Below, piece after piece: positions 2,621-56,883 of a stretch of DNA of 64,000 nt (the stretch's first letter is position 1; each line of letters begins with the position of its first letter). Under the pieces are notes generated by a model, which saw only the letters and a list, made by a program, of their open reading frames with translations, made no database searches and was not told where the DNA came from. Location of the stretch: the NCBI GenBank assembly GCA_030697645.1, contig JAUYPI010000008.1:4301-68300 (forward strand). Direction: 5' to 3'. The stretch comes from a bacterium. GTDB lineage: Bacteria; Patescibacteriota; Minisyncoccia; Phycocordibacterales; VMGT01. The position numbers and the translations under genes are program-made.

Positions 2621-2752
2621 CAAATTTTCAATTTTCAATGCTCAATTTTCAATAAATTTTCAATGTTTCAATGACGGACGACGTTGGCGTCGTGTTTGAA
2701 AATTGATTCATTGGAAAATTGATTGAAAATTGAAAATTGTGAATTGAAAATT
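2621..2752. repeat. ATTTTCAA-word palindromic element (family A) with ACGACGTTGGCGTCGT core
   Basis: Left arm is tandem (A)ATTTTCAAT units. The centre is GACGGACGACGTTGGCGTCGTGTTTG. The right arm is the reverse complement (ATTGAAAAT units). Confidence 0.8.
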
Positions 2753-2759
2753 GGTACGC

Positions 2760-3647
2760 ATGCACATCCCGGTCTTACTGCACGAAGTTCTCCAGTTCCT
2801 TTCAATTAAAAAAGGCGAGACGGTTCTCGACGCTACCGCGGGCGGCGGCGGGCACACGAGAGCGCTCTCGGATGCAGTCGGCGCGAAGGGAAAAGTCATT
2901 GCGATTGACGCCGACTCGAGCGCGCTCGCGCGGGTGCGCGATGGTCTCCGAGGAGCGGCGTGTCGCGCCGAGTTTATTCACGGAAATTTTCGCGATCTCG
3001 GCGAAATGCTTCAGGGTCGCGGCATCAGTGCGATAGACAAAGCGCTCTTTGACCTCGGTCTCTCGAGCGACCAGCTCGAGTATTCGGGGAGAGGGTTTAG
3101 CTTTGAGCGCGATGAGCCGCTCTTGATGACGTTTGCGGATCGAACGCCCGAGGGTACGCTCACGGCCTACGAGATCGTCAATAGTTGGGGCGAGGGTGAG
3201 CTTGTCGATATCCTGCACGTCTACGGTGAGGAGCGGCGGGCGAGGGGTATTGTGCGGGCAATCGTCGCAGCGCGCAAGATTCGTCCTATTGGAACGACTC
3301 GTGAGCTCGTGCGCGTGATTGAGGGTGTTGCGCCGCCGCGAGAGATGGGGCGCATCCATCCGGCGACGAAAACATTCCAGGCGCTGCGTATAGCGGTCAA
3401 TGATGAGATTGGCGCGCTTGAGGAAGGGCTCGACGCGGCGTTTAAGGCCCTGCGAGCAGGCGGAAGAATGGCGGTCATCTCATTCCACAGCATCGAGGAC
3501 CGAACAGTCAAGCACTACTTTGCTGACCTCGCGCGATCCGGCAGAGTGAACCTTTTAACAAAAAAACCAATCACGCCGACCGAGACGGAAGTCTCCACCA
3601 ACCGCCGTTCACGGAGTGCAAAGATGAGGGCGATCGAGAAAGCGTAA
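2760..3647 (+). CDS. rsmH: 16S rRNA (cytosine1402-N4)-methyltransferase RsmH
   Basis: MHIPVLLHEVL N-terminus and a SAM-binding motif DATAGGGGH. Canonical position after mraZ. Confidence 0.9.
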   Translation: MHIPVLLHEVLQFLSIKKGETVLDATAGGGGHTRALSDAVGAKGKVIAIDADSSALARVRDGLRGAACRAEFIHGNFRDLGEMLQGRGISAIDKALFDLGLSSDQLEYSGRGFSFERDEPLLMTFADRTPEGTLTAYEIVNSWGEGELVDILHVYGEERRARGIVRAIVAARKIRPIGTTRELVRVIEGVAPPREMGRIHPATKTFQALRIAVNDEIGALEEGLDAAFKALRAGGRMAVISFHSIEDRTVKHYFADLARSGRVNLLTKKPITPTETEVSTNRRSRSAKMRAIEKA

Positions 3648-3649
3648 AG

Positions 3650-3762
3650 TGTAAAACGAAAAACGCAAAACAACAACGCAAAACCTAAAACAGAACGAAC
3701 ACAGCAGCCGTTTTGAATTTTGTACTGTTGTTTTTCGCTTTTGCTTTGCATTTTTCGTTGCT
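3650..3762. repeat. CAAAACG-word palindromic element (family F)
   Basis: Left arm GTAAAACGAAAAACGCAAAACAACAACGCAAAACC, right arm CGTTTTGAATTTTGTACTGTTGTTTTTCGCTTTTGC, followed by GCTGACGTCTGACGTTAGG. Confidence 0.6.
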
Positions 3763-4152: not shown

Positions 4153-4232
4153 TGAGCTTTTAGCTTATAGCTGTTAGCTTTTAGCACGACGTCGGAGCCT
4201 CTCAAGAGCTAACAGCTATAAGCTAAAAGCTT
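4153..4232. repeat. AGCTTTTAGC/AGCTGTTAGCT-word palindromic element (family C) with CACGACGTCGG core
   Basis: GAGCTTTTAGCTTATAGCTGTTAGCTTTTAGCACGACGTCGGAGCCTCTCAAGAGCTAACAGCTATAAGCTAAAAGCTT. Confidence 0.8.
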
Positions 4233-4244: not shown

Positions 4245-5987
4245 ATGGTTGTTCCCCCGAAGCGCTCGGCCCCTGTGAAGGTGAAGTCGCGCAGTACACG
4301 TCTCGCAATTCTCTCCACTTCGCTCTGCATTGCCGCGCTTGCGCTCGTCCTCCGGCTCTATATGGTGCAGATCGTGCGCGGCGAAGAATTCGCCGAGCGC
4401 GCTGACCGACAGTACGTGCGTCCGCAGTCGCTCTTCGACCGCGGTTCTATTTTTTTTACCGCGCGCGACGGCGAGCGCGTCGCTGCGGCGACGCTTGGAA
4501 GCGGGTTTGCTGTTGCGATCTCCCCGGACGCGATCGTCGACCCCGAGGCGACGTTCTTGAAACTCTCGAGCACTCTTCCTGAGCTCTCTCGCGACGAGTT
4601 TCTTTCGCGCGCATCACGCCGGGGCGATCCGTACGAGCGCATTGCGGAGAAGCTCACCGAGGGCGAAGCCTCAACGATCCGCGCGATGGAGCTTCCGGGG
4701 GTCACGATCGAGCGCGATCGTTGGCGTATATACCCGGGTGGCGCGGGCGCTGCGCATGCGCTGGGCTTTATTGGTTTTGAAGGAGATGAAAGGAAGGGCC
4801 GCTACGGACTCGAACGCTACTATGAGGACGTGCTTGGGCGCAGCGAAGGTGCGCTCGCGGTTAACTTTTTTGCCGAACTTTTCGCCGGGGCAGGCACGGC
4901 GCTCCGCGGTGCGGAGCATGCGCGTGGCGATCTTGAACTCACCATCGAGCCGTCGGTCGAGGCGGCGCTGGAGAGGGAGCTTGCGGAAGTTACCGCAACG
5001 TGGCATACAGCGGGTACTGGCGGGATTATCATGGATCCGAAAACAGGGGCCGTCATGGCGATGGCTGCGGAGCCGACGTTTAATCCCAATGAATTTGCAG
5101 AGGCCGATTCTGCTTCATTCGCAAATCCGTTGGTCGAACATGTATTCGAGATGGGCTCAATAATTAAACCCCTGACTCTTGCCGCCGGGCTCGATGCCGG
5201 TGTTATAACCCCGGAGAGCACGTACTATGACGCCGGTTCGCTCACGCTCGACACCTGGACGATTTCAAACTTCGACGGCAAGGGGCGCGGCAGAGTCTCG
5301 ATGCAGACGGTGCTGAACGAGTCTTTGAACACGGGCGCTGCGTATGTCGCCTTGAAGCTCGGCAGTGCCCGCTTTGCCGAGTATTTTCGCCGATACGGCC
5401 TCGGCGAGGAAACCGGCATAGACGTGCCGAATGAAACGCGGGGCCTCCTCGGCAACCTCGACAGCCCCCGCTCGATTGAGTACGCGACCGCATCTTTCGG
5501 GCAAGGGATCGCGCTCACCCCTATCGGCACCGCACGCGCGCTCGCCTCGCTTGCAAACGGAGGGCTGCTCGTCACGCCTCATGTCGTCGCACGGGTAGCG
5601 ACAGACCTCGGCGTCGCGCAGAGCGCGCCGGCCGCCCATCCACCCGAGCGCATCCTCTCCGCAAAAGCTGCCGAGGAGATCACGCGCATGCTGGTGAAAG
5701 TCGTTGACGAGGCGCTCGTCGGTGGTGCTGCGAGCCTGCCGCACTACTCTATCGCGGCAAAAACAGGCACCGCCCAGATTGCAAATTCAGAGGACGGCGG
5801 CTATTATGAAGACAGGTTCCTCCACGCATTTTTTGGCTATTTTCCGGCGTACGATCCGCGTTTCCTCATTTTTTTCTACGCACGGGAGCCGCAGGGCGTA
5901 CGGTACGCCTCCCAGACGCTCACCACGCCGTTTATGGACCTTGCGAGATTTCTGATCGGGTATTATGAAATAGCGCCGGACCGCTAA
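4245..5987 (+). CDS. ftsI: penicillin-binding protein 2 / FtsI transpeptidase
   Basis: N-terminal TM helix and dimerisation domain. Transpeptidase motifs SIIKP (SxxK), SLN (SxN) and KTGTAQ (KTG). Confidence 0.9.
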   Translation: MVVPPKRSAPVKVKSRSTRLAILSTSLCIAALALVLRLYMVQIVRGEEFAERADRQYVRPQSLFDRGSIFFTARDGERVAAATLGSGFAVAISPDAIVDPEATFLKLSSTLPELSRDEFLSRASRRGDPYERIAEKLTEGEASTIRAMELPGVTIERDRWRIYPGGAGAAHALGFIGFEGDERKGRYGLERYYEDVLGRSEGALAVNFFAELFAGAGTALRGAEHARGDLELTIEPSVEAALERELAEVTATWHTAGTGGIIMDPKTGAVMAMAAEPTFNPNEFAEADSASFANPLVEHVFEMGSIIKPLTLAAGLDAGVITPESTYYDAGSLTLDTWTISNFDGKGRGRVSMQTVLNESLNTGAAYVALKLGSARFAEYFRRYGLGEETGIDVPNETRGLLGNLDSPRSIEYATASFGQGIALTPIGTARALASLANGGLLVTPHVVARVATDLGVAQSAPAAHPPERILSAKAAEEITRMLVKVVDEALVGGAASLPHYSIAAKTGTAQIANSEDGGYYEDRFLHAFFGYFPAYDPRFLIFFYAREPQGVRYASQTLTTPFMDLARFLIGYYEIAPDR

Positions 5988-5989: not shown

Positions 5990-6025
5990 TTGAGCTTTTA
6001 GCTTGTAGCTGTTAGCTTTTAGACC
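5990..6025. repeat. family C half-element (left arm only)
   Basis: TTTTGAGCTTTTAGCTTGTAGCTGTTAGCTTTTAGACCG is present but no matching right arm follows. Confidence 0.5.
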
Positions 6026-6133
6026 GTTTGTTTCGATAAATTTTCGCAAACCTGTGTCATTTTGGTATATACAACGCTTGCATAACGTCAAGCTGCTGCT
6101 GCGATGTTATCCACAGCGGCGTTATTTGCGCCT

Positions 6134-6598: not shown

Positions 6599-6646
6599 GA
6601 AATTGTCTGGAATCCGTTTTTATCCACATGTCATTAACGAATAGAA

Positions 6647-6682
6647 TTTGCAATAACCATGCGACCGCATTGTTATTGCAAA
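6647..6682. repeat. 36-nt conserved palindrome TTTGCAATAAC-catGCGACCGCat-TGTTATTGCAAA (copy 1 of 3)
   Basis: 11-bp inverted arms around a conserved GCGACCGC loop. Near-identical copies at 35845-35880 and 61963-61998. Confidence 0.8.
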
Positions 6683-6696
6683 TCTCTTAAAACCAC

Positions 6697-7143: not shown

Positions 7144-7270
7144 CACGAGAGTGTTAGCAGCTTCTCTTTGATTCAGTTATACCGTCGCAGTCTTCGCTCT
7201 CGCGGACACCACGCGGTTTGGCATGAAAACGATTACGACGTAGTAGTCCGTCCGTCATGCCGCAGAGCTT

Positions 7271-7330
7271 GCTTGGCGGTTCGTGATTTTGGAAATTGTC
7301 TTCCAAATTGGAGCTTTGGAACTTGGAAAT
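7271..7330. repeat. TTGGAAATT-word short palindromic element (family B)
   Basis: GATTTTGGAAATTGTCTTCCAAATTGGAGCTTTGGAACTTGGAAATTCG, immediately upstream of scpB. Confidence 0.6.
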
Positions 7331-7344
7331 TCGACTTTTGCCCC

Positions 7345-7887
7345 ATGCCTTTTCTCGAAACACACATTGAAGCCATACTATTTTACGTTACCGAACCCAT
7401 GTCGGTCGGCGAGTTAGCATGCCTGTTTGCATGTACGACTGCGGAGATAGAAATAGCGCTCACGGCGCTCGATGCCGCGCTTGCGGAGCGTGGAGTGCGG
7501 TTGGTGCGAATCGGCGAGAGCGTCGAGCTCCGCGCCGCGAGAGAGGCTGCGCCGCTCATTGAGAAACTCCGGCAGGACGAACTCTCGCGCGAGCTCTCGC
7601 GCGCTTCGCTTGAAACGCTCGCGGTCGTACTCTACCAGGGCCCGGTGACGCGATCCGAGATCGAGTATATCCGCGGCGTGCAGTCGCAGAGCTCAATCCG
7701 GTTGCTCGCGGGCCGCGGGCTCATTCAAAAAATATCGGAGTATGGGAGCAAACGCGGCACCTTCTATCGCGCGACCACCGAGGCGCTGGCGCATGTTGGG
7801 TTGAGTAGGGTAGAGGAGTTGCCCGACTACGAGAAGACGCAGGCAGTATTAAAGCAAAACGGGCGTGAAGAAGTGCAGGCATTTTAA
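7345..7887 (+). CDS. scpB: segregation and condensation protein B
   Basis: A winged-helix pair typical of ScpB (EAILFYVTEPMSVGELA ... ETLAVVLYQGPVTRSEIEYIRGV). Confidence 0.8.
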   Translation: MPFLETHIEAILFYVTEPMSVGELACLFACTTAEIEIALTALDAALAERGVRLVRIGESVELRAAREAAPLIEKLRQDELSRELSRASLETLAVVLYQGPVTRSEIEYIRGVQSQSSIRLLAGRGLIQKISEYGSKRGTFYRATTEALAHVGLSRVEELPDYEKTQAVLKQNGREEVQAF

Positions 7888-7895
7888 ATTCGACA

Positions 7896-8903
7896 TTGCG
7901 TCTCATTGAGATGCCACAGTATACTGGCGCTATGCGTAAAAGCCTTGCCCAACTCAATCTTCCGCGCTACTGCAGCGAGCTCGGTGTGCCGCTTGCGTCC
8001 TGCCCGCCGTTTCTTTTTATCATCATGGGCGTCGTGGTTATCGGCGCGATACTCGGTACGTACGCGGTGGCGCAGCGGTACGCAGAACCCGAGATTGCGG
8101 TGCTCATCATGCTTGCGCTCGCCGCGTTTCTGTTTGTCGTCGGGTACCTTATCATTGGCGCGTTTGAAAAATTGGCCGATTCGCGAGCGCGCGAGCGTCG
8201 TCAGGCCACCGAACTTCTCACGCTGAAGGATCAATTTGTGTTCCTCGCTGCCCACGAGCTCCGCGCACCGGCAACGGCAATCAAATGGGCGGTTGAATCC
8301 CTCGAGACCAACACACCAGAACTGGTCTCCAAAAATAAAGAGGAAATCCGACTGATTGTGCAAAATACGATGCGCCTCTTGGGCCTCGTGCATGATATTC
8401 TCGAGACTGCGCGGCTCGAGAGTCAGGCGCTGCGCATTTCTCTCCAGCCGACGCAACTCGGTGATATTATAGAGCAGGCGACCTCTTCAGTGCGTAATCT
8501 TGCTCAGGCACATGGAGTTACCGTTGTCTCCCGGTTGGAGGGGAATGTACCGCGTGTCAGTGCGGACCCCCTGCGACTTGGCGCGGTGTTCACCAATCTT
8601 CTTTCGAACGCGATTAAGTTTAGCGAACGCGGCAGCGAGGTTGAGATTACGGCGCTCACGAGTGAGAAGACCGTCGCCGTGGACGTCGTTGACCACGGGG
8701 TGGGTATCGCGAAGGACGACCAACCACACATTTTTGAAAAATTTTGGCATGGCGTCGGAACGATCGTATCGGTGGAACACAGCGGCCTTGGCCTTTTTAT
8801 CACGAAACAGCTCGTCCAACTTATGGGGGGTTCGATACGATTCGCCTCGGAGCAGGGCGAAGGTTCGACGTTCACCGTTGAGCTCAAGCGCGCGGAGGGG
8901 TGA
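7896..8903 (+). CDS. sensor histidine kinase (2 TM, HisKA + HATPase_c)
   Basis: H-box AAHELRAP, then N/G1/G2 boxes (LLSNAIKFS, DHGVGI, GLGLFITKQLVQLMGG). No response regulator is adjacent. Confidence 0.85.
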   Translation: MRLIEMPQYTGAMRKSLAQLNLPRYCSELGVPLASCPPFLFIIMGVVVIGAILGTYAVAQRYAEPEIAVLIMLALAAFLFVVGYLIIGAFEKLADSRARERRQATELLTLKDQFVFLAAHELRAPATAIKWAVESLETNTPELVSKNKEEIRLIVQNTMRLLGLVHDILETARLESQALRISLQPTQLGDIIEQATSSVRNLAQAHGVTVVSRLEGNVPRVSADPLRLGAVFTNLLSNAIKFSERGSEVEITALTSEKTVAVDVVDHGVGIAKDDQPHIFEKFWHGVGTIVSVEHSGLGLFITKQLVQLMGGSIRFASEQGEGSTFTVELKRAEG

Positions 8904-8904
8904 G

Positions 8905-8940
8905 TTGAGAGAGTAGAAAGTGGAGGGTGAAAAGTAGAAC
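8905..8940. repeat. GAGAGAGTAGAAAGTGGAG motif (copy 1 of 2)
   Basis: Shared with 29143-29176. Both copies directly follow the stop codon of a plus-strand gene (histidine kinase; rpoD). Confidence 0.5.
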
Positions 8941-8943
8941 GCG

Positions 8944-8973
8944 CTGCCCCGCTACTTTTTGGTAGCGGGGCAG
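8944..8973. terminator. bidirectional terminator hairpin between convergent histidine kinase and purM
   Basis: CTGCCCCGCTAC-TTTTTG-GTAGCGGGGCAG, a perfect 12-bp stem with A/T flanks on both sides. Confidence 0.7.
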
Positions 8974-10988: not shown

Positions 10989-11028
10989 TCGTCATAATAA
11001 AAATGCGGCCGCATTTTTATTATGACGG
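10989..11028. terminator. perfect 17-bp palindromic hairpin CGTCATAATAAAAATGCGGCCGCATTTTTATTATGACG
   Basis: Lies in the convergent intergenic region and could terminate either strand. Confidence 0.5.
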
Positions 11029-11109
11029 CGTAAAAACATATTTTGCCCGAGTGCCCGAATGTCAGAGGCAATCATGAGTAAAGTATTAAAAGCAATCATG
11101 AGCAAAATA

Positions 11110-11150
11110 AGAACGCGCGGTGAGCATGATGAGCTCACCGCGCGTTTCTT
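11110..11150 (-). terminator. terminator hairpin downstream of the E1 gene (AAGAACGCGCGGTGAGC-atgat-GAGCTCACCGCGCGTTTCTT)
   Basis: 15-bp stem with T/A runs on both sides, just 3' of the minus-strand stop at 11198. Confidence 0.65.
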
Positions 11151-11197
11151 CTTTGTCCTCTGGCTGCTCCAAGGAGGTTTTGGCAGCGTGATACTCG

Positions 11198-13667: not shown

Positions 13668-14900
13668 GTGCAACACACACCAAAAGTGCTCATGATCGGC
13701 TGGGAACTGCCGCCCTTTAACAGCGGCGGGCTTGGTGTTGCTTGCTACGGGCTCGCCAAAGCGCTTGCCGGACGCGGGACGGACATACTCTTCACGCTCC
13801 CGCACGAGGCAGCAGTCTCGGCGCCGTTCATGAGAGTGTGGTTTGCGGGAAGCGAGGTTTCGAGAGCAGCGGCGAAGTTCACCGCATACAGTTCTGTCGG
13901 GCCGCGAGGCACTCGGGCGCGAGGCATGGAACAGGGCGGTAACACGCTTTTTGATACGGTGTATGCTTACGCTCGCGCGGTGCGCGAGCGTGCGATGAGA
14001 GAGCACTTCGACCTCATCCACGCGCACGACTGGCTCACGTTTCCAGCGGGGCTTGCCGCGGCGGAGGCGACGGGAAAACCTTTGATTACGCACGTCCATG
14101 CGACCGAGTTTGACCGCACCGGCGGCCGGGGCGCGAACAGTGAGGTGTATCGGATTGAACGTGAGGCCTTCGAGGGAGCAGAGCGCGTTGCGACGGTGAG
14201 CAACTACACGCGGGAGCTCGTCGCGCGAAACTACAGTGTCGATCCGGACAAAATTTCAGTGCTGCACAACGGCATTGATCCGGAAGAATTCAAGGCGGGG
14301 CAGGGGAGGATCGAGGCCCTCCGGCGCCTGCGCGAGCGGGGCGCGAAAATTGTTCTTTTTGTCGGACGGCTCACGATACAGAAAGGGCCGGATTATTTTA
14401 TCGCTGCCGCCGCACGCACGCTCGCGCATCGCCCGAACACCTATTTTGTTATCGCGGGATCCGGCGATATGGAACGGCAAATAATAGAAGAGGCCGCCTA
14501 TCGGCGGATCGCGGAGCGGGTGCTCTTTACGGGATTTGTTCGCGGCGATGAGCGCGACGCGCTCTACCGAGCGGCGGATGTCTACGTGATGCCCTCGGTT
14601 TCGGAGCCGTTCGGCATCACGGCGCTTGAAGCTATCGGGTACGGCGTGCCGGCAATCGTCTCGAAGCAAAGCGGCGTGCGCGAAGTCTCGCCGCACATGC
14701 TGCTTGCCGATTTTTGGGACGTCGACGAGCTCGCGAACAAAATTATTGCCGTCATAGACCACCCCGCCCTCACCGACACCCTGCGCGAGCACAGCATCAA
14801 GGACGTCCTGCGGGCCACGTGGGATAGGACGGCGGAGAAATGCCTTGAGATGTATCGGGGCTTACTTGCGGGGCAAGCGTATGCAGCGGGCTGTGCATGA
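13668..14900 (+). CDS. GT4-family glycosyltransferase (glycogen-synthase-like)
   Basis: Retaining GT-B glycosyltransferase motifs: HAHDWLTF, GRLTIQKGPDY, EPFGITALEA. Followed by GH57 and GH15 genes. Confidence 0.8.
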   Translation: MQHTPKVLMIGWELPPFNSGGLGVACYGLAKALAGRGTDILFTLPHEAAVSAPFMRVWFAGSEVSRAAAKFTAYSSVGPRGTRARGMEQGGNTLFDTVYAYARAVRERAMREHFDLIHAHDWLTFPAGLAAAEATGKPLITHVHATEFDRTGGRGANSEVYRIEREAFEGAERVATVSNYTRELVARNYSVDPDKISVLHNGIDPEEFKAGQGRIEALRRLRERGAKIVLFVGRLTIQKGPDYFIAAAARTLAHRPNTYFVIAGSGDMERQIIEEAAYRRIAERVLFTGFVRGDERDALYRAADVYVMPSVSEPFGITALEAIGYGVPAIVSKQSGVREVSPHMLLADFWDVDELANKIIAVIDHPALTDTLREHSIKDVLRATWDRTAEKCLEMYRGLLAGQAYAAGCA

Positions 14901-14925
14901 AGGAACCAATCAGTTCAAGGCGTCT

Positions 14926-15030
14926 AAATTTTCAATTATCAATTTACAATTTTCAATCAATTTTCAATGACACAATTTTCAAACACGACGTCGTCGTTTT
15001 GAAAATTAGAAATTGAAAATTGGTAATTGT
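14926..15030. repeat. family A palindromic element with ACACGACGTCGTCGTTTT core
   Basis: TAAATTTTCAATTATCAATTTACAATTTTCAATCAATTTTCAATGACACAATTTTCAAACACGACGTCGTCGTTTTGAAAATTAGAAATTGAAAATTGGTAATTG. Confidence 0.8.
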
Positions 15031-15036
15031 GTAAAC

Positions 15037-16335
15037 ATGCCTTCCGTCTGCTTCTACTTCCAAGTCCATCAGCCGATGCGCATTCGCCGCTTCAGGGTGT
15101 TTGATGTGGGCAACGACCACGGGTACTTCGACGAGGGGAGCGGTGCGAGAACAGACAATCGCGCGGTGCTCGAAAAGGTGGCGCGCAAGTCATATCTTCC
15201 CACGAACCGACTGCTCCTCGCCCTCCTCGAGCGCCATCCGGAATTTCGCGTGAGTTTTTCGCTCTCGGGAGTTCTCCTCGAGCAGCTCGAGCGCTACGAG
15301 CCGGACGTACTTGCCTCGTTTCAAGCCCTGGTGAAGACCGGCCGCGTCGAGCTCCTCGCCGAGACCTATTACCACTCGCTCTCTTTTCTTTTCTCACGGG
15401 AAGAATTCGAGCGGCAGGTGCGACTCCATGAGCGTTTAATCAAAAGATTGTTCGGCGTTCGGCCGCGCGTGTTCCGCAATACCGAGCTCATTTACCACAA
15501 TGACATCGGGCGAGTGGTGAGTGCGATGGGTTACAGCGGCATACTTGCCGAAGGCGCGGATCACATTCTCGGCTGGCGGAGCCCGTGCTTTCTCTACCGG
15601 CCGAAAGGAGTGTCGCGGACAGCGCTCCTCCTCAAGAATTACCGCCTCTCGGACGATATCGCATTTCGCTTCGGTGAGCGTTCATGGAAAGAGTACCCAC
15701 TGACAGCCGGCAAATTCGCCGATTGGGTCGAATCACACAACGGAGGCGGAAACCTGATCAATCTCTTTATGGACTACGAGACATTCGGGGAGCACCAATG
15801 GGAGGACACCGGCATTTTTGCATTTCTTGAGCATCTGCCTCGCGAGCTCCTGCGCCGCCGCGATACTGATTTTGTGACGCCATCCGAGGCGATCCGCCGG
15901 TACCGGCCGGTCGCCGAGCTCGACGTGCCGCACTACGTCTCGTGGGCCGATATCGAGCGCGATCTCTCAGCATGGCGCGGCAATGCCCTGCAGGAGCAGG
16001 CCTTGAGGGAGCTCTACTCACTTGAGCGCGATGCGCTCGCGAGCCGCGACCCCGTACTCATCGAAGATTGGCGTCGGCTCCAGACCTCCGACCACTTTTA
16101 CTACATGTGCACGAAGTGGTTTGCGGACGGCGATGTGCACAAATACTTCAATCCGTACGAGTCGCCGTATGACGCATTTATCTCATACATGAATGTGCTT
16201 GCGGACCTGCGGCTGCGCCTTGGTGGCGTTTCGGGTCGGAGCCGCGCAGGGCCGATTGCGCGAATACGCGAGTGGGGCACTCTGATCCGCTCCCCGCTAT
16301 CGTTTTTGAAAAACGTCGTATCATTATCAGCGTAA
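15037..16335 (+). CDS. glycoside hydrolase family 57 (alpha-amylase / 4-alpha-glucanotransferase-like)
   Basis: GH57 hallmark N-terminus VCFYFQVHQPMRIRRF (HQP motif). An earlier TTG in the ORF lies inside the palindrome and was not used. Confidence 0.8.
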   Translation: MPSVCFYFQVHQPMRIRRFRVFDVGNDHGYFDEGSGARTDNRAVLEKVARKSYLPTNRLLLALLERHPEFRVSFSLSGVLLEQLERYEPDVLASFQALVKTGRVELLAETYYHSLSFLFSREEFERQVRLHERLIKRLFGVRPRVFRNTELIYHNDIGRVVSAMGYSGILAEGADHILGWRSPCFLYRPKGVSRTALLLKNYRLSDDIAFRFGERSWKEYPLTAGKFADWVESHNGGGNLINLFMDYETFGEHQWEDTGIFAFLEHLPRELLRRRDTDFVTPSEAIRRYRPVAELDVPHYVSWADIERDLSAWRGNALQEQALRELYSLERDALASRDPVLIEDWRRLQTSDHFYYMCTKWFADGDVHKYFNPYESPYDAFISYMNVLADLRLRLGGVSGRSRAGPIARIREWGTLIRSPLSFLKNVVSLSA

Positions 16336-16349
16336 TATAAGTTAATACC

Positions 16350-16655
16350 ATGTCATTTATGGCAACAGTCAAACGAACACTCGGAAGCAAGAAGCTCTCA
16401 AGTAGAGCGATGCACGAGGTGACCGGCGCCGCCTGTTTCTGGGTCAATAACGGACCGATTCTCTGCAGCCTGCGCGATTTGCACACCGCGCTCGGCGTGA
16501 TGACCAAAAAGCAGTTTGAGCACCACGCGCGAGCGCAACACAACGACTTCGCATCATGGGCGGAGGGCGTCTTTGCCGACAAGGCGCTCGCTCTGAGGCT
16601 CCGTCGCGCAAAGACCCCGGCAGGAATGCGCAAGGCGCTCGCGGCGTACCTGTAA
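16350..16655 (+). CDS. hypothetical protein within the glucan cluster
   Basis: 101-aa ORF with genome-typical codon usage, between GH57 and GH15. No recognisable motif. Confidence 0.45.
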   Translation: MSFMATVKRTLGSKKLSSRAMHEVTGAACFWVNNGPILCSLRDLHTALGVMTKKQFEHHARAQHNDFASWAEGVFADKALALRLRRAKTPAGMRKALAAYL

Positions 16656-16658
16656 CGT

Positions 16659-16793
16659 AAATTTCCAATTTTCAATTTTGCAATTTTCAATCAATTTTCA
16701 ATGGATCAATGATTCAATGACGGACGCCGTCGCGTTTGAAAATTGCGTCATTGAAAATTCATTGGAAATTGAAAATTGTACATTGAAAATTTT
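16659..16793. repeat. family A palindromic element with GACGGACGCCGTCGCG core
   Basis: AATTTCCAATTTTCAATTTTGCAATTTTCAATCAATTTTCAATGGATCAATGATTCAATGACGGACGCCGTCGCGTTTGAAAATTGCGTCATTGAAAATTCATTGGAAATTGAAAATTGTACATTGAAAATTTT. Confidence 0.8.
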
Positions 16794-16801
16794 ACACTCC
16801 C

Positions 16802-18757: not shown

Positions 18758-18788
18758 CAACAGATTTGGAAAGATGGGTTGAAGGGTA

Positions 18789-18917
18789 AAATTTTCAATG
18801 TACAATTTTCAATTTTCAATCAATTTTGCAATGACACAATTTTCAAACACGACGTCGTCCGTCACTCAGTCATTGACACGTTGAAAATTGATTGAAAATT
18901 GCAAAATTGAAAATTTT
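18789..18917. repeat. family A palindromic element with ACACGACGTCGTCCGTCA core
   Basis: AAATTTTCAATGTACAATTTTCAATTTTCAATCAATTTTGCAATGACACAATTTTCAAACACGACGTCGTCCGTCACTCAGTCATTGACACGTTGAAAATTGATTGAAAATTGCAAAATTGAAAATTTTT. Confidence 0.8.
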
Positions 18918-18979
18918 TGGCATGCTACGAGTTGGGTATGTGGATAAGTCAACAGTGGTTGATGGTGTATGATTTAATC

Positions 18980-19286: not shown

Positions 19287-19670
19287 ATGAACCTCTTCGA
19301 CAAACTCACCCCACAATTGTTCCTCCGTCTCGGCCTCGGCGCGGTGTTTGCGTACTCGGGACTTAATATTCTGCTGCACCCCACTGCGTGGACGTGGGCT
19401 CTGCGCGGGCTGCCGGCGTTCATCCAAACCCAGATCGATCGGGTTGGCCCCGAGATGTATCTTCGCGGTCAGGGCATCGCCGAGCTCGCTATGGCGGCGG
19501 CGTTCCTTGCGTGGTTCCTGCCGCGCTGGCTTGTACGTATCGCGGCGTTTTTTGCGGCCGTTGAAATGGCGGCGATACTGGTTTTTGTCGGCGTCGACGC
19601 CGCGACATTCCGCGACATCGGCCTTCTCGGCGCGGCGCTCGGGGTATTGTTCGGCAGGGCGTTTTATTAG
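19287..19670 (+). CDS. DoxX-family membrane protein
   Basis: Four predicted TM helices with a DoxX-like pattern (LGLGAVFAYSGLNILLHP ... AELAMAAAFLAWF). Confidence 0.7.
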   Translation: MNLFDKLTPQLFLRLGLGAVFAYSGLNILLHPTAWTWALRGLPAFIQTQIDRVGPEMYLRGQGIAELAMAAAFLAWFLPRWLVRIAAFFAAVEMAAILVFVGVDAATFRDIGLLGAALGVLFGRAFY

Positions 19671-35880: not shown

Positions 35881-35973
35881 TTTTCGTTCAGTTCGTTTCT
35901 CGGTGAGTGTGTCGGTTCTCTTTTTGGACAGGCCCGCTTCTCGTTTTTGATATTGGCGTATATACTGCAGCGT

Positions 35974-37227: not shown

Positions 37228-37236
37228 ACTACTGAA

Positions 37237-39730: not shown

Positions 39731-39882
39731 AAATTCGAAATACGAATATCAAATCCGAGCCGAACATTTGACATGTAACATTTGACATTTGACCGCGTCG
39801 CCTCGTCTGTCAAATGTCAATGGTCAATTGTCACATGTTCTGTTCGTGCTTCGATATTCGGATTTAGGCATATTCGGATTTC
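39731..39882. repeat. family D palindromic element (CATTTGACA words) with CGCGTCGCCTCGTC core, nested in outer arms
   Basis: Outer arms GAAATACGAATATCAAATCCGAG / CTTCGATATTCGGATTTAGGCATATTCGGATTTC. Inner AACATTTGACATGTAACATTTGACATTTGACCGCGTCGCCTCGTCTGTCAAATGTCAATGGTCAATTGTCACATGTT. Confidence 0.8.
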
Positions 39883-41598: not shown

Positions 41599-41938
41599 AC
41601 TACGCGGGGCTTGCTCCCGCGTGGTTCAGGGATTTGGACAGAAATAAAAATTGAAGTAATTTTAGACCTACGCAAAATGTAAAAAATGGCTTAATCGGCA
41701 TGTGCAAACTTGTTTTAGTGGCTTGCTTGTATCGCTTATCAACTATTTTGCGTAGGTCCTATAATTAAAATCTTGGTCACCAAGTAGCTGGAAGCCGACT
41801 TAATTTTTTGCGATGATTGACAGGCTGTTCCATGAATGTTACTTTTATAGACAGCGATCAGTGCTGATGAGGTGTGGTTCGAGCTTCTGTTGCAGCCATT
41901 GTATTTGATATATTATTCGCAAAATTTTTTACGCTATC

Positions 41939-42267: not shown

Positions 42268-42341
42268 TGCCGGGTCGTCTAAAGGTAGGACAATTGCCTC
42301 TGGAGCAATTTATCTTGGTTCGAGTCCAAGCCCGGCAGCCA
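42268..42341 (+). tRNA. tRNA-Gln(CUG)
   Basis: Cloverleaf: acceptor TGCCGGG/CCCGGCA, D-arm GTC-TAAAGGTAG-GAC, anticodon arm ATTGC-CTCTGGA-GCAAT (anticodon CUG), T-arm CTTGG-TTCGAGT-CCAAG, discriminator G, then CCA. Confidence 0.75.
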
Positions 42342-42373: not shown

Positions 42374-42789
42374 GGCTTGCTATAGAGCCAGATTTTGTAG
42401 GTTCGAACCATGGCTGTTGGGCCTAAACCGCGATACGTGACTCTTTACTGAGGCAATGCACATATAGGATTTTTTTGAAAAATAGCGGTTCGAAAGCGTA
42501 GAGACGGTGGTAGACGAGAAACCATTGACTTAGGTGTGCGGTTATGTATACTAGAACGAGGTTAACAACTACATATGGTGTATCCAGAGTACGGAGATGC
42601 GAAGGGTAATGGCCCAATGCTCCGTCCGCAACCTGTTCGCCGAGTGGCGAAAAAGGTGCGAACTCCATCCTTCAGACTTCCTGTTTGAAGGAAAGATACG
42701 TTCTAAAATTGGATGTCTGGATACACCGCCTTCGTGGGCGGTGTATTTGTTTGGTAGAAGGTCCTTGACAATACTATAAGGAACAACGC

Positions 42790-44208
42790 ATGGTACAAAA
42801 ACATAGTACGGCCGAACCAAGCATCCTTCAGTTGCTTGGAATCGTTGGATACGACTCAGTTGAGTCGGTAGTCATCGCCGCGCTCGCGACGGAAGCTCCG
42901 CTGCTCATTATCGGCCCACACGGGACTGCAAAATCATTGCTGCTGAATTTGCTCGCGGAGGCACTTCGTCTTGAACATCGCCATTATAATGCAGCGATGA
43001 TCAATTTCGACGACCTCATCGGGTTTCCGTATCCGAACGAAAGCAAGACTGGCCTTGAGTATATACCAACGAAAGGCTCTATATGGGGAGTAGAGTCTGT
43101 GTTTATTGACGAAATATCACGCACTCGCGTTGATATGCAAAACCGGCTGTTCCCAATCATCCACGAGAAGATGATCCAAGGCATTCCGCTTTCGGGTCTT
43201 CGTTTCAGATGGGCGGCCATGAACCCTCCACGAAAGGACGAGGAAGAAGAGCGCGGGTGGACGTACGAAGGCTCGGAGCCACTTGATGTGGCGTTGGCGG
43301 ACCGATTTCCGTTTATTCTTTCACTTCCGTCTTTTGCAGCGTTTTCCGAGAGCCACAAGCTCGCGGTCATTCGCGGCCAGCCGGAAGTGGAAGCTGCAAA
43401 AGTTGGCACTCTGCTCTCTCAGCGAATTAACCTCGCGAGAGTTGCGGCAGGGGAAGTAAGGAAAACTTTGAGCGAGAGTATCGGCTCCTATGTCCTTGCC
43501 ATTCATGCGCTTCTTGAAAAGATGAAACGGCCAATATCACCGAGACGCGCCCGCATGCTCCACGATGCCATTGTTGGGGTTATCGCGGCGGAATCGGTTG
43601 CCGGTCGCCACGATTCAAAGTCCGCGACATTCATGGCGCTTACGAACGCCTTACCGCATCCCGCGTACGGCGAGGTTATAGATGCGTTAGAATTACTCAC
43701 GGCCCATAACCAGGCGTGGAAATTAGCCGAAATTCCTGCAACGGATCCAAGGCGACTCATCTTTGCCGAACCCAATCCGGTGAAGCGGGTGGCGTTGGGA
43801 TTATCACTCTCGATTCCGGATTTGGATATGTCGATCCTAGTGCAGGACGCGTACGCCTCGCTTGAGGCAGTTGAGCGCATCTGCTTTGGGGTTGCGCTCT
43901 ATCCTATAGTGAGTACCACGAAAAATCTGACAGCCGTTGCGTTCGAGGCTCTAGCCGACGAATGGTTCGAGGTTGAGAATCAATCGGCGCGCAGACATCA
44001 AGTGGCGAGCGGGTCGAAACGGCATCGGCAGTGGCAAAAACTGGTCGATTGGATCAGTGAGCAGACGACGAACACCTTAGAAGAAAGTGTGAAAGTTAAT
44101 ATCGCACTTGTCCTCTTTGAGCGGGAAGTCGAGTTTGAACCGGAAATCGTCGCACTGACCTTCAACAAGTTTAACGAGTTATTCCCCTGGAGAAAGGAAA
44201 ACGTATGA
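42790..44208 (+). CDS. MoxR-like AAA+ ATPase with C-terminal extension
   Basis: Walker A LLIIGPHGTAKS, Walker B VFIDEISR, sensor and arginine-finger region. Lower GC than the core genome. The stop overlaps the next start (ATGA). Confidence 0.8.
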   Translation: MVQKHSTAEPSILQLLGIVGYDSVESVVIAALATEAPLLIIGPHGTAKSLLLNLLAEALRLEHRHYNAAMINFDDLIGFPYPNESKTGLEYIPTKGSIWGVESVFIDEISRTRVDMQNRLFPIIHEKMIQGIPLSGLRFRWAAMNPPRKDEEEERGWTYEGSEPLDVALADRFPFILSLPSFAAFSESHKLAVIRGQPEVEAAKVGTLLSQRINLARVAAGEVRKTLSESIGSYVLAIHALLEKMKRPISPRRARMLHDAIVGVIAAESVAGRHDSKSATFMALTNALPHPAYGEVIDALELLTAHNQAWKLAEIPATDPRRLIFAEPNPVKRVALGLSLSIPDLDMSILVQDAYASLEAVERICFGVALYPIVSTTKNLTAVAFEALADEWFEVENQSARRHQVASGSKRHRQWQKLVDWISEQTTNTLEESVKVNIALVLFEREVEFEPEIVALTFNKFNELFPWRKENV

Positions 44209-54108: not shown

Positions 54109-54269
54109 TTTTTCTTGTCAGACAGCATATAAAGCCTTGCGTCAAGTGTTTTTTCTTTTTGTGGTTGTGCACTATACTTAATACTTATGAGTAATAATGA
54201 GTCCAGCAGTGTGCAACGAGCAACTTTTTCTTGGTAACTGTTTGCCGCTGACCGAGACAGTTTTTATTT

Positions 54270-56711
54270 ATGTCAGACGACACAGGAGAAAATTTCTCTT
54301 CACTAGAGAGCGATAGCGGGGCGCAGTCTCACAGAAAACGAGATGGCTTTTTGTCGCGCCTACCATTTTGGTCTCTGGTGGGGCTTACGTTTCTGCTGCC
54401 GGTTTTTTTCCTCCCCTCGCCCGCGTCCCACTTTCAGCTCACGAAGGTAGTCCTGCTCGCGGTGTTTGTTGTCGGAGCATTGGTCATGTGGATTGTGGGG
54501 CGTCTCCGCACCGCGGAGGTGACCCTCCCCCGCGTTCTATTCTTCTATGCGCTGCTCTTCCTTCCGATTGTCTCGCTCCTTTCAGCCGTTTGGGCGCGTT
54601 CATTCAGTACCGCGCTTTTTGGCGGTGGGTTTGAGACGGATACGGTCGCGTTCCTCCTGCTATGCGCGCTGTTTACATTGGTCACCGCGGTCTCCGTGCG
54701 TACCCGCGAACACGCCATTAAAATCTATGCAGCGCTGCTCGCTTCGTTTTTTGTCGTCGCGCTCTTTCAGATGGCTCGACTCTCCTTCGGGTTTGATACG
54801 CTCGCTTTCAGCGGCACGTTTACGACGAGCATTGCGAATCTTATCGGCAAATGGAATGATCTCGGCATTTTTTTTGGGCTCATCGCGATCCTCACGCTCA
54901 CATCGCTCGAGTTTCTGACCGTGCGTCCGTTGGTCCGCGTCCTGCTCTCGATCCTGCTTGCGTTCGCGCTGTTTCTGCTTGCGGTGGTGAATTTCCTTGC
55001 GGTCTGGACCGTGCTCGGTGCTCTTGCAATCGTTTTCGCCGTGTACCGATTTTCACTGAGGCGCGGCGTCCGCAGAGCCGCGCGAGCGAGCGAGGGTAAG
55101 AGCGAGGCGCCCCGACTTGCGGACATTCGCCGCGAGCTGCCGATCGCGACACTTGCGGTACTTGTGGTAGCATCGGTCTTTATCTTTACCGGAAATATGG
55201 ACGATAACCGGCTCGGCTCGGCGATCTCATCCGCGTTCAAGGTCGTGCACCTTGAGGCACGGCCGTCCTGGACCTCAACGCTCGCTGTTGCGCGGCAGAC
55301 GCTCCTGGCGCACCCGATACTCGGCGTCGGGCCGAACCACTTCCTCGCCGAGTGGCACAGGCTTAAGCCCGAAGGCATCAACAGCACTCCATTCTGGGCC
55401 GTCGACTTCTCGCTTGGTGTTGGACTTCTGCCGACGATGCTGATTACCACCGGGCTCCTCGGCGCTGCCGTGCTTCTCACTGTGCTTATCGGATTTTGCT
55501 ACCATGGTTTTCGAGCTCTCTTTGTGCTGCGCGAGGATCCTCTCGGTTTCTATCTCCTGGTTTCATCCTTTGTCGGCGCGCTTTACGGCTGGATCATTCT
55601 CGTGATCTATGTGCCAAGCCCGCCGACGGTCGCGCTCACATTCCTTTTCACCGGACTTTTTCTTGCGGTACTTGTGTCTGAGAAGATGCTCGGGGAGCGC
55701 ACGATCAGTTTTTTGAGCCCGAGGGCGAGCCTCGTAGGCGCAACGATACTGGTCTCACTCGGGATTGTCAGTCTCGTTGGCGTTGGTGCCTATGCAAAAC
55801 GTGCTCTCGCGATGTACTACTATCAACGGGCGACGATCGTCCGTGCCGCCGGTGCGGGCGTTGAGGAAACTGACGCACCCCTCACTCGTGCCCGAAAAAT
55901 TCACGCTTTTACGATCATAGATCGCGCTCGCGCGCAGCTCGGGCTTGCGGCGCTCTCGGAGCTCCTCGCTCGTGAAGAGATCAATACCGACGCGGGGAGA
56001 GAGGCATTTCGCGCGACGCTCGGCACTACTATAGACCGCGCGCGCGCGGCTATGGAGCGCAATGAATACGAATACCAGAACTGGCTTGTGCTCGGCGATG
56101 TCTATACGAGCATTGTGCCGCTCAAGATTGAAGGTGCGTACGGGCAGGCGAAGGATGCCTATGATCGGGCTCGTGCCCTGAATCCGACACATCCGGCGAT
56201 CCTCCTTGCTCTAGCGCGGCTCGAGGCGGCACGAGGGGAAAACGGCTCGGCGCGGGATCTCGTCAAGGATGCGCTCAATATGAAAAATAATTACTCAGAA
56301 GCCATCTTTTTCCTCTCGCAACTCGATATCGCCGCAGGCAATCTCGACGAGGCTCTCAAGAGCGTCGAATCCGCCTCACTCCTTGAGCCGAACAACCCCC
56401 TTATCTTCTTCCAACTCGGGCTTCTGCGCTACAATGGAGAATCATGGGATAACGCGATTGCCGCCTTCGAGCGTGCGGTCTTGCTCAATGACGTGTATGC
56501 AAATGCGCGCTACTTCCTTGGCCTCTCGTATGCAAGAGTGGGCCGCACCGCCGACGCCCTTACGCAGTTTGAGGTCGTCGCGCGGTACAATCCGGACAAC
56601 GCGGAAGTGAAAACGGTTGTGGCCAATTTGCGTGCGGGCCGCGAACCGTTCGCGGGTGCCGACGTTAAGCCGCCGGAGGAGCGGGAGGAGCTGCCGATTG
56701 CGGAAGAGTAA
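54270..56711 (+). CDS. O-antigen ligase/polymerase-like (Wzy_C) membrane protein with C-terminal TPR repeats
   Basis: At least ten TM helices, a periplasmic-loop motif region (LGVGPNHFLAEWH), then about six TPR units. Confidence 0.75.
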   Translation: MSDDTGENFSSLESDSGAQSHRKRDGFLSRLPFWSLVGLTFLLPVFFLPSPASHFQLTKVVLLAVFVVGALVMWIVGRLRTAEVTLPRVLFFYALLFLPIVSLLSAVWARSFSTALFGGGFETDTVAFLLLCALFTLVTAVSVRTREHAIKIYAALLASFFVVALFQMARLSFGFDTLAFSGTFTTSIANLIGKWNDLGIFFGLIAILTLTSLEFLTVRPLVRVLLSILLAFALFLLAVVNFLAVWTVLGALAIVFAVYRFSLRRGVRRAARASEGKSEAPRLADIRRELPIATLAVLVVASVFIFTGNMDDNRLGSAISSAFKVVHLEARPSWTSTLAVARQTLLAHPILGVGPNHFLAEWHRLKPEGINSTPFWAVDFSLGVGLLPTMLITTGLLGAAVLLTVLIGFCYHGFRALFVLREDPLGFYLLVSSFVGALYGWIILVIYVPSPPTVALTFLFTGLFLAVLVSEKMLGERTISFLSPRASLVGATILVSLGIVSLVGVGAYAKRALAMYYYQRATIVRAAGAGVEETDAPLTRARKIHAFTIIDRARAQLGLAALSELLAREEINTDAGREAFRATLGTTIDRARAAMERNEYEYQNWLVLGDVYTSIVPLKIEGAYGQAKDAYDRARALNPTHPAILLALARLEAARGENGSARDLVKDALNMKNNYSEAIFFLSQLDIAAGNLDEALKSVESASLLEPNNPLIFFQLGLLRYNGESWDNAIAAFERAVLLNDVYANARYFLGLSYARVGRTADALTQFEVVARYNPDNAEVKTVVANLRAGREPFAGADVKPPEEREELPIAEE

Positions 56712-56719
56712 AGGTTCAC

Positions 56720-56883
56720 GAATTTCCAATTTCCAAATTCACAATTTCCAAATAATTTCCAAAACTTCAAGTTCCAATTTCCAAACACGACGCGGCTACT
56801 CGTAATGGTAGTGGTGTTTGGGATTTAATTTTTTGGAATTTGAGATTTGTTTGGAAATTGGTTACTTGGAAATTGGAAATTTA
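56720..56883. repeat. AATTTCCAA-word palindromic element (family B) with ACACGACGCGGCTACTCG core
   Basis: AATTTCCAATTTCCAAATTCACAATTTCCAAATAATTTCCAAAACTTCAAGTTCCAATTTCCAAACACGACGCGG ... TTTGGAAATTGGTTACTTGGAAATTGGAAATTT. Confidence 0.8.

Follow-up and report, generated by a model that had tools for sequence, protein, structure and literature searches.

Heptamer repeats have been known in cyanobacteria since 1990 and as a general excess in bacterial genomes since 2007, and they are still unexplained. According to a passage of PMC4692102 that cites Mrazek 2007, heptamers are over-represented among bacterial simple repeats, and polymerase slippage is relayed in the same paper as a hypothesis for the size of the unit (PMC4692102). 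The GGGAATC arrays of Xanthomonas and the GGGGAYT arrays of Nostoc are about 90% intergenic, follow the upstream open reading frame (ORF) at a distance of about 28 nucleotides (nt), lie mostly between co-oriented and rarely between divergent genes, and are in some cases inverted; the same junction is kept, with wide variation between close relatives (PMC4692102). Campbellbacteria and Kaiserbacteria, which belong to the candidate phyla radiation (CPR), ranked above all other phyla for inverted-repeat density when 118,019 genomes were surveyed, and no cause was given (PMC13155455). Here we analyze a 64-kb stretch of a Parcubacteria genome of the CPR (assembly GCA_030697645.1, contig JAUYPI010000008.1, positions 4,301 to 68,300; hereafter the window), in which heptamer arrays are organised as long intergenic palindromes. 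[quoted passage not shown] A literature search found no paper on heptad palindromes in the CPR.

The GC content of the window is about 55%, and its genes are typical of Parcubacteria, including mraZ-mraW-ftsL and a penicillin-binding protein (PBP) gene, scpB, dnaG-rpoD, ftsE-ftsX, pyrG, murJ, genes for the glycoside hydrolases GH57 and GH15, and a multicopper oxidase. Host sequence was covered over these 64 kb, and the counts of elements and families given below hold within them. The palindromes were recovered by inverted-repeat, AT-island and reverse-complement BLAST scans; a sliding-window minimum free energy scan was unsuited to finding them, because GC-rich coding DNA swamps the signal. 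The elements are 55-170 bp long, and in 14 of them the predicted folds beat dinucleotide shuffles, with z-scores from -2.1 to -9.7 and energies from -18 to -65 kcal/mol. All but one fall between 2.6 and 40 kb of the window, and the region from 42 to 56 kb has a lower GC content and is free of heptad palindromes. An initial annotation of this DNA had listed AT-rich palindromes at 16 sites; 14 are indeed long hairpins, whereas those at 5990 and 7271 are one-armed or degenerate and that at 3650 folds weakly. Missing from its list were a palindrome at 21978-22070, two non-palindromic arrays (29143-29176 and 8904-8945) and the outer arms that enclose the D palindrome at 39731. It had also raised the concern of assembly artefacts. 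The same elements are present in a second assembly (GCA_034376905.1, locus L203) that is 99.97% identical across 16.5 kb, six independent metagenome contigs from a sister species agree with one another in carrying unchanged elements of this type, and short-read Logan contigs terminate within elements. Given the agreement of the second assembly and the six sister-species contigs, the elements are real sequence that disrupts assembly rather than a product of it.

The unit of the arms is 7 nt in every family. Autocorrelation of the arms has its maxima at 7 and 14, the 77 rows of Tandem Repeats Finder include 34 of period 7 and another 7 of period 14 or 21, and a scan for runs of at least four units, treated uniformly over periods 6-12, found 15 arrays at period 7 in the window against none at period 6 or at periods 8-12. 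The arm words of 8-14 nt reported by the initial annotation were therefore misparsed. The units are AATTTTC in family A, AATTTCC in B, AGCTNTT in C, CATTTGA in D, GTATNTT in E, GCAAAAC in F and GAGAGTA in solo arrays; at least seven heptad words coexist in the window, and most arrays are paired as palindromes. At the centre of the palindromes, exact CACGACG (23 occurrences in the window against 13 ± 3.6 expected) stands at the inner end of the arm in 7 elements, namely three of family A, one of B and three of C. Core variants occur in the A copy at 16659, the C copy at 38752 and both D copies, which are of the GACGTCGCGTCG type, and families E and F have no GC core. The centre of the consensus of 16 family A copies is a perfect palindrome, GACGACGTCGTG. 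The single modular architecture with sub-families that had been proposed is supported; the core is shared by A, B and C and loosely by D, but it is not universal, being absent from E and F.

The periodicity of these arrays extends to other Parcubacteria. In 80 unbiased loci around rpoD from more distant members of the group (888 kb), there are 26 arrays of period 7 against 5 of period 6 and 2 of period 8, while shuffled sequences give none at periods 6-8. Several of these loci carry an array just after the rpoD stop codon, each built of another word, like the GAGAGTA array at this position in the window. Thus, across Parcubacteria arrays the period is conserved and the sequence is not.

The palindromes of the window are copied as whole units. 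Over 130 nt, the asymmetric loop included, the family A element at 16657-16795 shares 91% identity with the reverse-complemented copy from 18786-18916, and these two copies flank GH15 in inverted orientation. The four A copies of the window occur in two orientations, while every flanking gene is on the + strand. Three C copies are likewise 84-89% identical over 70-78 nt. As in-place growth of low-complexity DNA cannot yield such whole-unit identity, we conclude that the copies are dispersed repeats. An alignment of 16 family A copies from 12 genomes, including metagenome-assembled genomes (MAGs) of Paceibacterota, Staskawiczbacteria and Nomurabacteria, gave one consensus with sharp ends (AATTTTC…GAAAATT) and unrelated flanks, and other Parcubacteria genomes also contain families A and B, at junctions that are not orthologous. 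In a scan of GTDB genomes with the pattern arm…CGACG…arm, the matches listed include true arm-core-arm elements in many Patescibacteria MAGs, among them Paceibacterota, Buchananbacteria, Staskawiczbacteria, Nomurabacteria, Parcubacteria and others. Scans of viral contigs for the A and C patterns returned chance hairpins or nothing, and a plasmid search with one A element gave no match, possibly on account of low-complexity masking.

Comparison of related genomes at orthologous junctions, which the initial annotation had suggested as a check, uncovered replaced families, a half element and family B at differing junctions. The sister species (PBP 87% identical to that of the window at the amino acid level; six contigs from NCBI, JGI and ENA) has a GTCAAAA-type element, termed H, between mraZ and mraW where the window has A, H again between mraW and ftsL where the window has F, and B between ftsL and PBP where the window has C. 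The H element between mraW and ftsL is probably a diverged orthologue of the F element of the window, since the two have a common apex (…AAAAC(C)ACAGC…). The B element of the window, located between a tetratricopeptide repeat (TPR) gene and murJ, matches the B element found between ftsL and PBP in the sister species, with left arms that are about 90% identical by eye and agree in the order of their variant heptads. In another relative, with an FtsE that clusters with that of the window at 90% identity, a long ATTCGAA/AATCCGA palindrome with the apex AAACACGACGCCCCGTGTTT lies 3' of ftsE, where the window carries a short C element. At locus L202, the GH15 of which is 79% identical, only a right arm and half a core are seen upstream of GH15, and the window itself contains solo arms at 5993, 29143 and 8904. 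The 80 distant rpoD loci have almost no such palindromes, suggesting that the expansion is lineage-specific. Taken together these comparisons point to a lineage-specific expansion of the palindromes with rapid replacement and decay. Single-nucleotide polymorphisms in populations of the sister species lack test power in this regard, there being none over the whole mraZ-PBP region and all variation being clustered in holB.

Several further hairpin or heptad families were encountered in the course of these comparisons. A-like AATTTTC palindromes occur at 7270-7385 and 7820-7945, about 570 nt apart, in a 110-kb contig of 66% GC labelled Opitutae (L095), and at 5346-5442 in a 1.2-Mb contig labelled FCPU426 (L043), which suggests either spread beyond the CPR or mislabelled bins. 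A contig labelled Acidobacteriota (L100) has 64-nt arrays of TTTGATn heptads in inverted orientation at 6-69 and 7789-7852, 7.7 kb apart, that might bound a large element, and heptad palindromes with the GC-rich words ACACGGA and CACGGAG at 2752-2849 and 5273-5585. In a related Parcubacteria contig (L166) another hairpin family is found at 11073-11171, 17622-17718, 18784-18886 and 19664-19778; it combines a conserved GC-rich loop of about 27 nt (CGCTCCGGGCCGCTTGGCCAAGTCTTA) with arms of 31-44 nt that vary by copy and are 97-100% complementary within a copy, a pattern opposite to that of family A. Two MAGs labelled 'delta proteobacterium' (CAWIEU01 and CAVSJK01; L002-L118) contain dozens of nested palindromic repeats around CAAATTTTCAATCATT(A/T)CGACGTAC…, with an inner match of about 50 nt and a hairpin of more than 100 nt; these belong to an unrelated REPIN/MITE-like family and represent a chance match to the pattern.

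The confirmed long, AT-rich palindromes of the window, which as such are assigned no strand, comprise four copies of A, four to five of C, two each of D and E, and one to two of B, when one-armed and degenerate forms are considered alongside them. Family A (AATTTTC/GAAAATT arms) is found at 2623-2752 between mraZ and mraW (apex GACGGACGACGTTGGCGTCGTG; -49.5 kcal/mol, z -6.0), at 14926-15030 between the GT4 and GH57 genes in reverse orientation (apex CACGACGTCGTCG; z -3.7), and on the two sides of GH15, at 16657-16795 upstream (z -6.5) and 18786-18916 downstream (z -3.1). Family C (AGCTNTT/AANAGCT) is found at 4155-4231 between ftsL and PBP (apex CACGACGTCGG; arms complementary at 25/25 positions; z -9.7), at 27698-27776, where it spans the dnaG-rpoD junction from stop codon to start codon (z -5.1), at 32237-32305 between the S21 gene and a hisS-like gene on the minus strand, with an extra right-arm fragment that extends the feature to 32335 (z -4.6), and as a short version at 38750-38801 between ftsE and ftsX, overlapping the ftsE stop codon (z -2.1). 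A solo C left arm at 5993-6027 (+ strand) shares 97% identity with its counterpart in 4155-4231 and forms no hairpin (z +0.39). Family D (CATTTGA/TCAAATG) is present at 31825-31901 at a convergent junction (apex GACGTCGCGTCGCC; z -3.3), where ORF 30902-31840 extends at its 3' end into the left arm, and within a nested palindrome at 39731-39882 between ftsX and pyrG, in which inner D arms (39764-39840) are enclosed by outer ATTCGAA/AATCCGA heptad arms (z -6.1). The family E elements (GTATNTT/AANATAC) lie at 23081-23166 (no GC core; z -8.6) and at 34362-34470, the latter situated between minus-strand genes and having a large loop that is not GC (z -3.0). Family B (AATTTCC/GGAAATT) is represented by 56720-56885 between the TPR gene and murJ (apex CACGACGCGG; -65.4 kcal/mol, z -8.2), and degenerate B-like TTGGAAA words occur at 7285-7330 (+ strand) upstream of scpB, with no hairpin (z -0.05). 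The family F palindrome at 3650-3760 between mraW and ftsL (GCAAAAC/GTTTTGC, without the CACGACG core) folds weakly in sense (z -1.1) and has an energy of -35.1 kcal/mol in antisense. The newly found palindrome at 21978-22070 has AAATGAA arms around CAATGCAAAATTTTTAATTTTGCATTG (z -3.7), and non-palindromic heptad arrays on the + strand are seen at 29143-29176 (GAGAGTA), directly 3' of the rpoD stop codon, and at 8904-8945 (GAGAGTA type), after a histidine kinase gene and followed by a GC hairpin.

The elements lie at the 3' ends of genes. Among some 40 co-directional junctions that measure 40 nt or more, 15 contain an element, as does one convergent junction, whereas all four divergent junctions, and with them the divergent promoter regions, are free of elements; every array recovered in the scan for runs of at least four heptads is intergenic or overlaps a stop codon. 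Elements occur in the dcw (division and cell wall) cluster and at the dnaG-rpoD and ftsE-ftsX junctions. The earlier statement that copies sit inside operons is borne out for ftsE-ftsX and dnaG-rpoD, whereas the third example offered, 'rpsU-dsbA', is a convergent junction at which the neighbouring ORF has no Pfam match. In most cases the base of the hairpin encloses or abuts the upstream stop codon and the downstream start codon. This placement fits an element that fills a short spacer, and also fits masking of a start codon that is relieved by upstream termination. The possibility that the heptads supply stop codons in all three frames was considered and rejected: it is true of C, D and G, and fails for A (top strand) and B.

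The comparative data favor the earlier suggestion of a mobile element family, and dispersed foldback repeats are, in our estimation, about as probable as all other explanations combined. According to this proposal each element would be built around a short GC-rich palindromic apex, ancestrally approximately AAACACGACG followed by CGTCGTGTTT, with 4-9 imperfect 7-bp repeats on each side in inverted arrangement. Heptamer arrays would be a general, slippage-prone trait of the intergenic DNA of Parcubacteria, and in this lineage they would have become organised as palindromes that spread to new junctions, were replaced by other families and decayed to one arm. The spread might be mediated by a transposase, or by replication template switching or gene conversion between heptad arrays. 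The elements would fill short spacers at gene 3' ends, where we infer that they are co-transcribed with their neighbors. The resulting RNA hairpin would place the upstream stop and the downstream start side by side at its base, and because of this geometry insertions might be tolerated even in essential operons; the same geometry could couple downstream translation to upstream termination. An RNA or translational-coupling role is plausible.

Several observations weigh against dispersal as mobile repeats. No target-site duplication is visible in the 16 aligned A copies or in the C copies, though one could go unseen because the ends are themselves 4-nt palindromes (AATT and AGCT). Neither the window nor the compared loci yielded an autonomous partner or a transposase with matching ends, and no clean empty site was recovered among the compared loci. 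Three dcw junctions are filled in both species, and a hairpin could be required there. Furthermore, the variant heptads of family C, when read directly, are mirrored between the two arms; together with the paired arms around a conserved loop in the L166 family, this provides a hint that pairing is maintained in some families. Finally, as the host genome is seen over 64 kb, the copy numbers are limited to the window.

The elements might instead be host-selected intercistronic RNA hairpins, serving as attenuators or terminators, barriers to 3' exonucleases, RNase III sites or masks of the start codon, with the repeat families being secondary. In favor of this, every element follows a gene and none separates a divergent pair, the folds are very stable, and stop and start codons lie at the hairpin base; the dcw junctions remain filled in both species although the families changed, the mirrored variant heptads of family C are consistent with selection on pairing, and as motifs resembling the Shine-Dalgarno (SD) sequence are rare, re-initiation may matter. 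Nevertheless, we consider this explanation unlikely. If the RNA were the selected form, the sense strand should be the better folder, but no such bias was found (sense is better in 11 of 18 elements, with a mean difference of -1.4 kcal/mol), and the excess of G·U pairs tracks the orientation of the element and not transcription, being 6 versus 1 in 16659 and reversed in 18789. In family A the arms are no more complementary within elements than between them (mean scores of 28.7 and 28.9, permutation p 0.61), and this lack of within-element compensation fits copies decaying from a master sequence. The role in RNA processing or stability suggested by the initial annotation accordingly receives no specific support from either the G·U pairs or the A arms. 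Most related Parcubacteria lack elements at the same junctions, and the apex is a perfect, loopless DNA palindrome, which is not needed for a function in RNA.

The canonical terminator shape is also absent from the elements. With an intrinsic terminator taken as a GC-rich stem of 5-20 bp with a loop of 3-8 nt and a T run directly after it, consensus scans of 1-40 kb listed, among the elements, only the core of 21978-22070, and canonical terminator hairpins are found elsewhere in the window, for example at 24134-24167 and 11111-11147. These results agree with the previous inference that the elements are not just terminators. RNAalifold gave no consensus structure for the 16 family A copies, because the number of heptads shifts the pairing register among copies. 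No Rfam family reached its gathering score on any element, and in E-value mode the region 14880-18960, which includes three A copies, showed only a sub-threshold likeness to hairpins of plant miRNA precursors. In the outer arms of family A, a sigma-70 scan detected TTGAAA-N17-GAAAAT on each of the two strands, which is an automatic consequence of the period of 7, and the total counts equal those of shuffled sequence. SD usage after elements is no different from that elsewhere, as SD-like motifs are rare all over the window.

The palindromes might alternatively have an immobile origin in place, in which slippage expands a local heptamer array and fold-back (snap-back) copying across a short CGACGTCG palindrome then creates the second arm. 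The over-representation of heptamer arrays in Parcubacteria, with differing words at one position such as that just after rpoD, is in line with such a process, as are the bacterial heptamer excess and the slippage explanation found in a passage of PMC4692102 that cites Mrazek 2007; one-armed arrays do occur, and a perfect palindromic apex is what fold-back priming should produce. However, growth in place cannot explain why unrelated junctions, and different genomes, share one complex succession of variant heptads and one asymmetric loop, nor does it account for the two orientations. Recent common ancestry of copies at different loci is already indicated for A, B and C. We regard an exclusively local origin as quite improbable.

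The regularity of the arms also raises the possibility that they are double-stranded DNA iterons for a protein that reads 7-bp steps, comparable to the ribbon-helix-helix omega repressor with its heptads or to MetJ with its 8-bp boxes, and that the elements are operators or nucleoid or partition sites. The period of 7 is strict in all families, AATTTTC/GAAAATT is kept in many genomes, including the contigs labelled Opitutae and FCPU426, and each arm is conserved to the family consensus and not to its partner arm. The half-sites of the CodY box of Firmicutes are AATTTTC and GAAAATT. Yet the presence of at least seven unrelated heptads in 64 kb would demand many specificities, the words differ at orthologous sites of relatives, no candidate binding protein is found among the window ORFs scanned, and the sites are at the 3' ends of genes and not in promoter regions. 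We consider a function of this kind improbable.

The elements might also be REP/BIME (bacterial interspersed mosaic element) or REPIN sequences mobilised by a REP-associated tyrosine transposase (RAYT) or another IS200-type Y1 transposase. The degraded IS200-like TnpA noted previously is real: a truncated Y1 transposase fragment of 45 residues (…GHVMPDHVHVL…) is encoded on the + strand at 58712-58846, abutting a tRNA-Met gene, and matches positions 16-60 of the 121 of the Pfam Y1_Tnp profile with an E-value of 1.5e-8. The elements are extragenic, located at 3' ends and hairpin-forming, the apex contains CGTC, a REP tag motif (PMC3733652), and the asymmetry of G·U pairs by element orientation would, as a weak indication, be expected of a strand-specific single-stranded DNA substrate. 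On the other hand, the fragment is truncated and has no flanking element, the nearest being 1.8 kb away, and a protein homologue search with its 45 amino acids found no relatives. The elements are single foldbacks of 55-170 bp and not REPs of 20-40 nt or doublets of these, the foot of the stem has no GTAG or CGTC tag, and the arms are tandem heptads. Accordingly, nothing connects the fragment to the elements, a REP/RAYT link remains speculation as it was in the initial annotation, and we hold this mechanism to be very improbable.

Finally, we give practically no credence to assembly artefacts, despite the short-read contigs that end in elements, given the identical second assembly and the unchanged sister-species contigs described above, or to TIGR arrays, the guide RNA arrays of TIGR-Tas systems that are common in the CPR and whose stem-loop arrays exist in Patescibacteria (bioRxiv 10.64898/2026.09.09.750476), as a by-eye comparison with the published description led us to reject these in view of dispersed single hairpins in place of tandem spacer-pair units, no box C/D motifs on reading and no Nop/Tas domain match among about 50 ORFs scanned.

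Returning to dispersed foldback repeats, their occurrence in a minimal CPR genome as palindromes of several word families with a shared apex and evident turnover makes the origin and function of heptamers testable by comparison. Elements like these are a plausible cause of the inverted-repeat density reported for CPR groups (PMC13155455). They break short-read assemblies, which affects the contiguity of MAGs, and as several of the longest ORFs run into arms the calling of gene starts is affected too. Since they are present inside essential operons (dcw, dnaG-rpoD and ftsEX), any effect on coupling or stoichiometry would touch core cell biology. A bolder proposal, which we advance only tentatively, is that heptad foldbacks with a CACGACG-type apex constitute a class of mobile DNA in bacteria that has so far gone unrecognised and that needs no dedicated transposase to spread, or spreads via an apex-specific enzyme. 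The route might be replication template switching or gene conversion that starts within 7-bp arrays prone to slippage, and the class would be common to Parcubacteria and perhaps to other phyla, in view of the contigs labelled Opitutae, FCPU426 and Acidobacteriota. In a variant of this proposal, the host could have taken the elements as operon punctuation that couples downstream genes without an SD sequence to upstream termination. If correct, the mobile DNA class would explain both the inverted-repeat density of the CPR and the bacterial heptamer excess.

The window contains several other features of note. A 38-nt near-perfect palindrome, ATTTGCAATAACnATGCGAnCGCATTnTTATTGCAAAT, is present in three copies, at 6646-6683, 35844-35881 and 61962-61999; the copies are situated in AT-rich DNA upstream of genes. 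The palindrome resembles an operator bound by a regulator in dimeric form and has no relation to the heptad elements. The DnaA box TTATCCACA is enriched, with 17 matches at no more than one mismatch against 7.2 expected, of which four are exact. Sites lie at 2032-2040, 6107-6115, 6620-6628 and 18939-18947, and also in L213 (at about 7700), L202 and L219; the matches are intergenic, and among them is a pair upstream of mraZ that the sister species shares. Also upstream of mraZ, a perfect 20-nt inverted repeat (ACCCATTCAAAATTTCATGC … GCATGAAATTTTGAATGGGT) encloses 135 nt at 1849-2023 and may mark a structured RNA or regulatory region, for which Rfam gave no match at E <= 1 save one at chance level. 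At 41640-41775, at the convergent junction after pyrG, there is a long hairpin whose arms (…TTTTAGACCTACGCAAAATGT … ACTATTTTGCGTAGGTCCTATAATTAAAA…) are unique and not built of heptads; it has only a sub-threshold Rfam match (RAGATH-15, 17 bits against the 199.5 needed). A perfect 38-nt palindrome at 10990-11027 (CGTCATAATAAAAATGCGG joined to CCGCATTTTTATTATGACG) adjoins a canonical bidirectional terminator at 11103-11155; with the terminator-like hairpin at 24134-24167, these indicate that the genome uses ordinary hairpins as well. A SAM (S-adenosylmethionine) riboswitch is recognized at 42577-42702 (46.9 bits, with 44.4 needed) upstream of ORF 42790-44208, and tRNA genes are present for Tyr (29940-30027), Gln (42268-42341) and Met (58853-58926). 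Lastly, a leader of about 30 nt (GAAGTGAGTA(G/A)TTCGTTGTTGGCAGTTGCGT) is duplicated, at 37235-37264 before a nucleotidyltransferase/HEPN pair and at 38035-38068 before ftsE, and this toxin-antitoxin-like pair may have been inserted into the ftsE upstream region.

Among known systems, integron attC sites and the Vibrio cholerae repeats are imperfect palindromes of 55-140 bp that follow co-oriented genes and are alike within a genome, as are the elements described here. Unlike attC sites, the elements have housekeeping flanks and occur in both orientations, with no RYYYAAC…GTTRRRY ends seen on reading and no integrase among the ORFs scanned. They share with MITEs a length below 300 bp, a lack of coding capacity, inverted-repeat arms, multiple copies and positional polymorphism between relatives. 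The FB elements of Drosophila resemble them in having a central loop, some copies being little but two arms, and the inverted repeats of Galileo are internally repetitive (PMC3573991), like the arms of tandem sub-repeats in the window. As foldback elements are eukaryotic, of kilobase scale and have a transposase in full-length copies, this likeness is architectural only. ERIC/IRU, the Neisseria Correia/NEMIS elements and RUP are closer in size at 100-170 bp, fold end to end, and occur in either orientation in transcribed intergenic DNA, in many copies and with decayed forms (reviewed in PMC10969869). They differ in having terminal inverted repeats of unique sequence, a TA duplication and sometimes a known parent insertion sequence, whereas the window elements have low-complexity heptad arms and no definable duplication, and no parent insertion sequence was seen in the window or the compared loci. 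REP, BIME and REPIN sequences of Pseudomonas and E. coli are likewise non-coding, extragenic, at 3' ends and in operons, form long hairpins, fall into families and decay to singlets. A REPIN consists of two inverted REPs of 20-40 nt, each palindromic with a tag and tied to a RAYT gene (PMC3116915, PMC3333891), in contrast to the tandem heptad arms of the window elements, in which CGTC is at the apex only and for which no RAYT was found in the window. The earlier view that the elements are unlike REP/BIME is therefore correct with respect to the defining features of REPs, but it overlooked a precedent in heptamer arrays (PMC4692102, PMC4679880).

That precedent, the nearest among known systems, consists of heptanucleotide repeats located between genes in cyanobacteria, Xanthomonas and Beggiatoaceae. 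The short tandemly repeated repetitive sequences (STRR) of cyanobacteria, GGGGAYT of Nostoc, GGGAATC of Xanthomonas and TAACTGA of Beggiatoaceae and cyanobacteria agree with the elements of the window in several respects: they have a 7-nt unit and are almost only intergenic, they lie close behind the upstream ORF, mostly at co-oriented junctions and with some inverted, relatives keep the junction while length and sequence change greatly, and they precede start codons that lack an SD sequence (PMC4692102, PMC4679880). These known systems have one or a few dominant words per genome, mostly in direct arrays, whereas at least seven word families coexist in the window. They further differ from the elements reported here in that the latter are systematic palindromes around a shared GC apex, are copied as units of 80-130 bp across loci and genomes, and reside in a CPR host. 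Thus, while repeats of this kind were already known, their organisation as palindromes around a shared GC apex that are dispersed as units is new.

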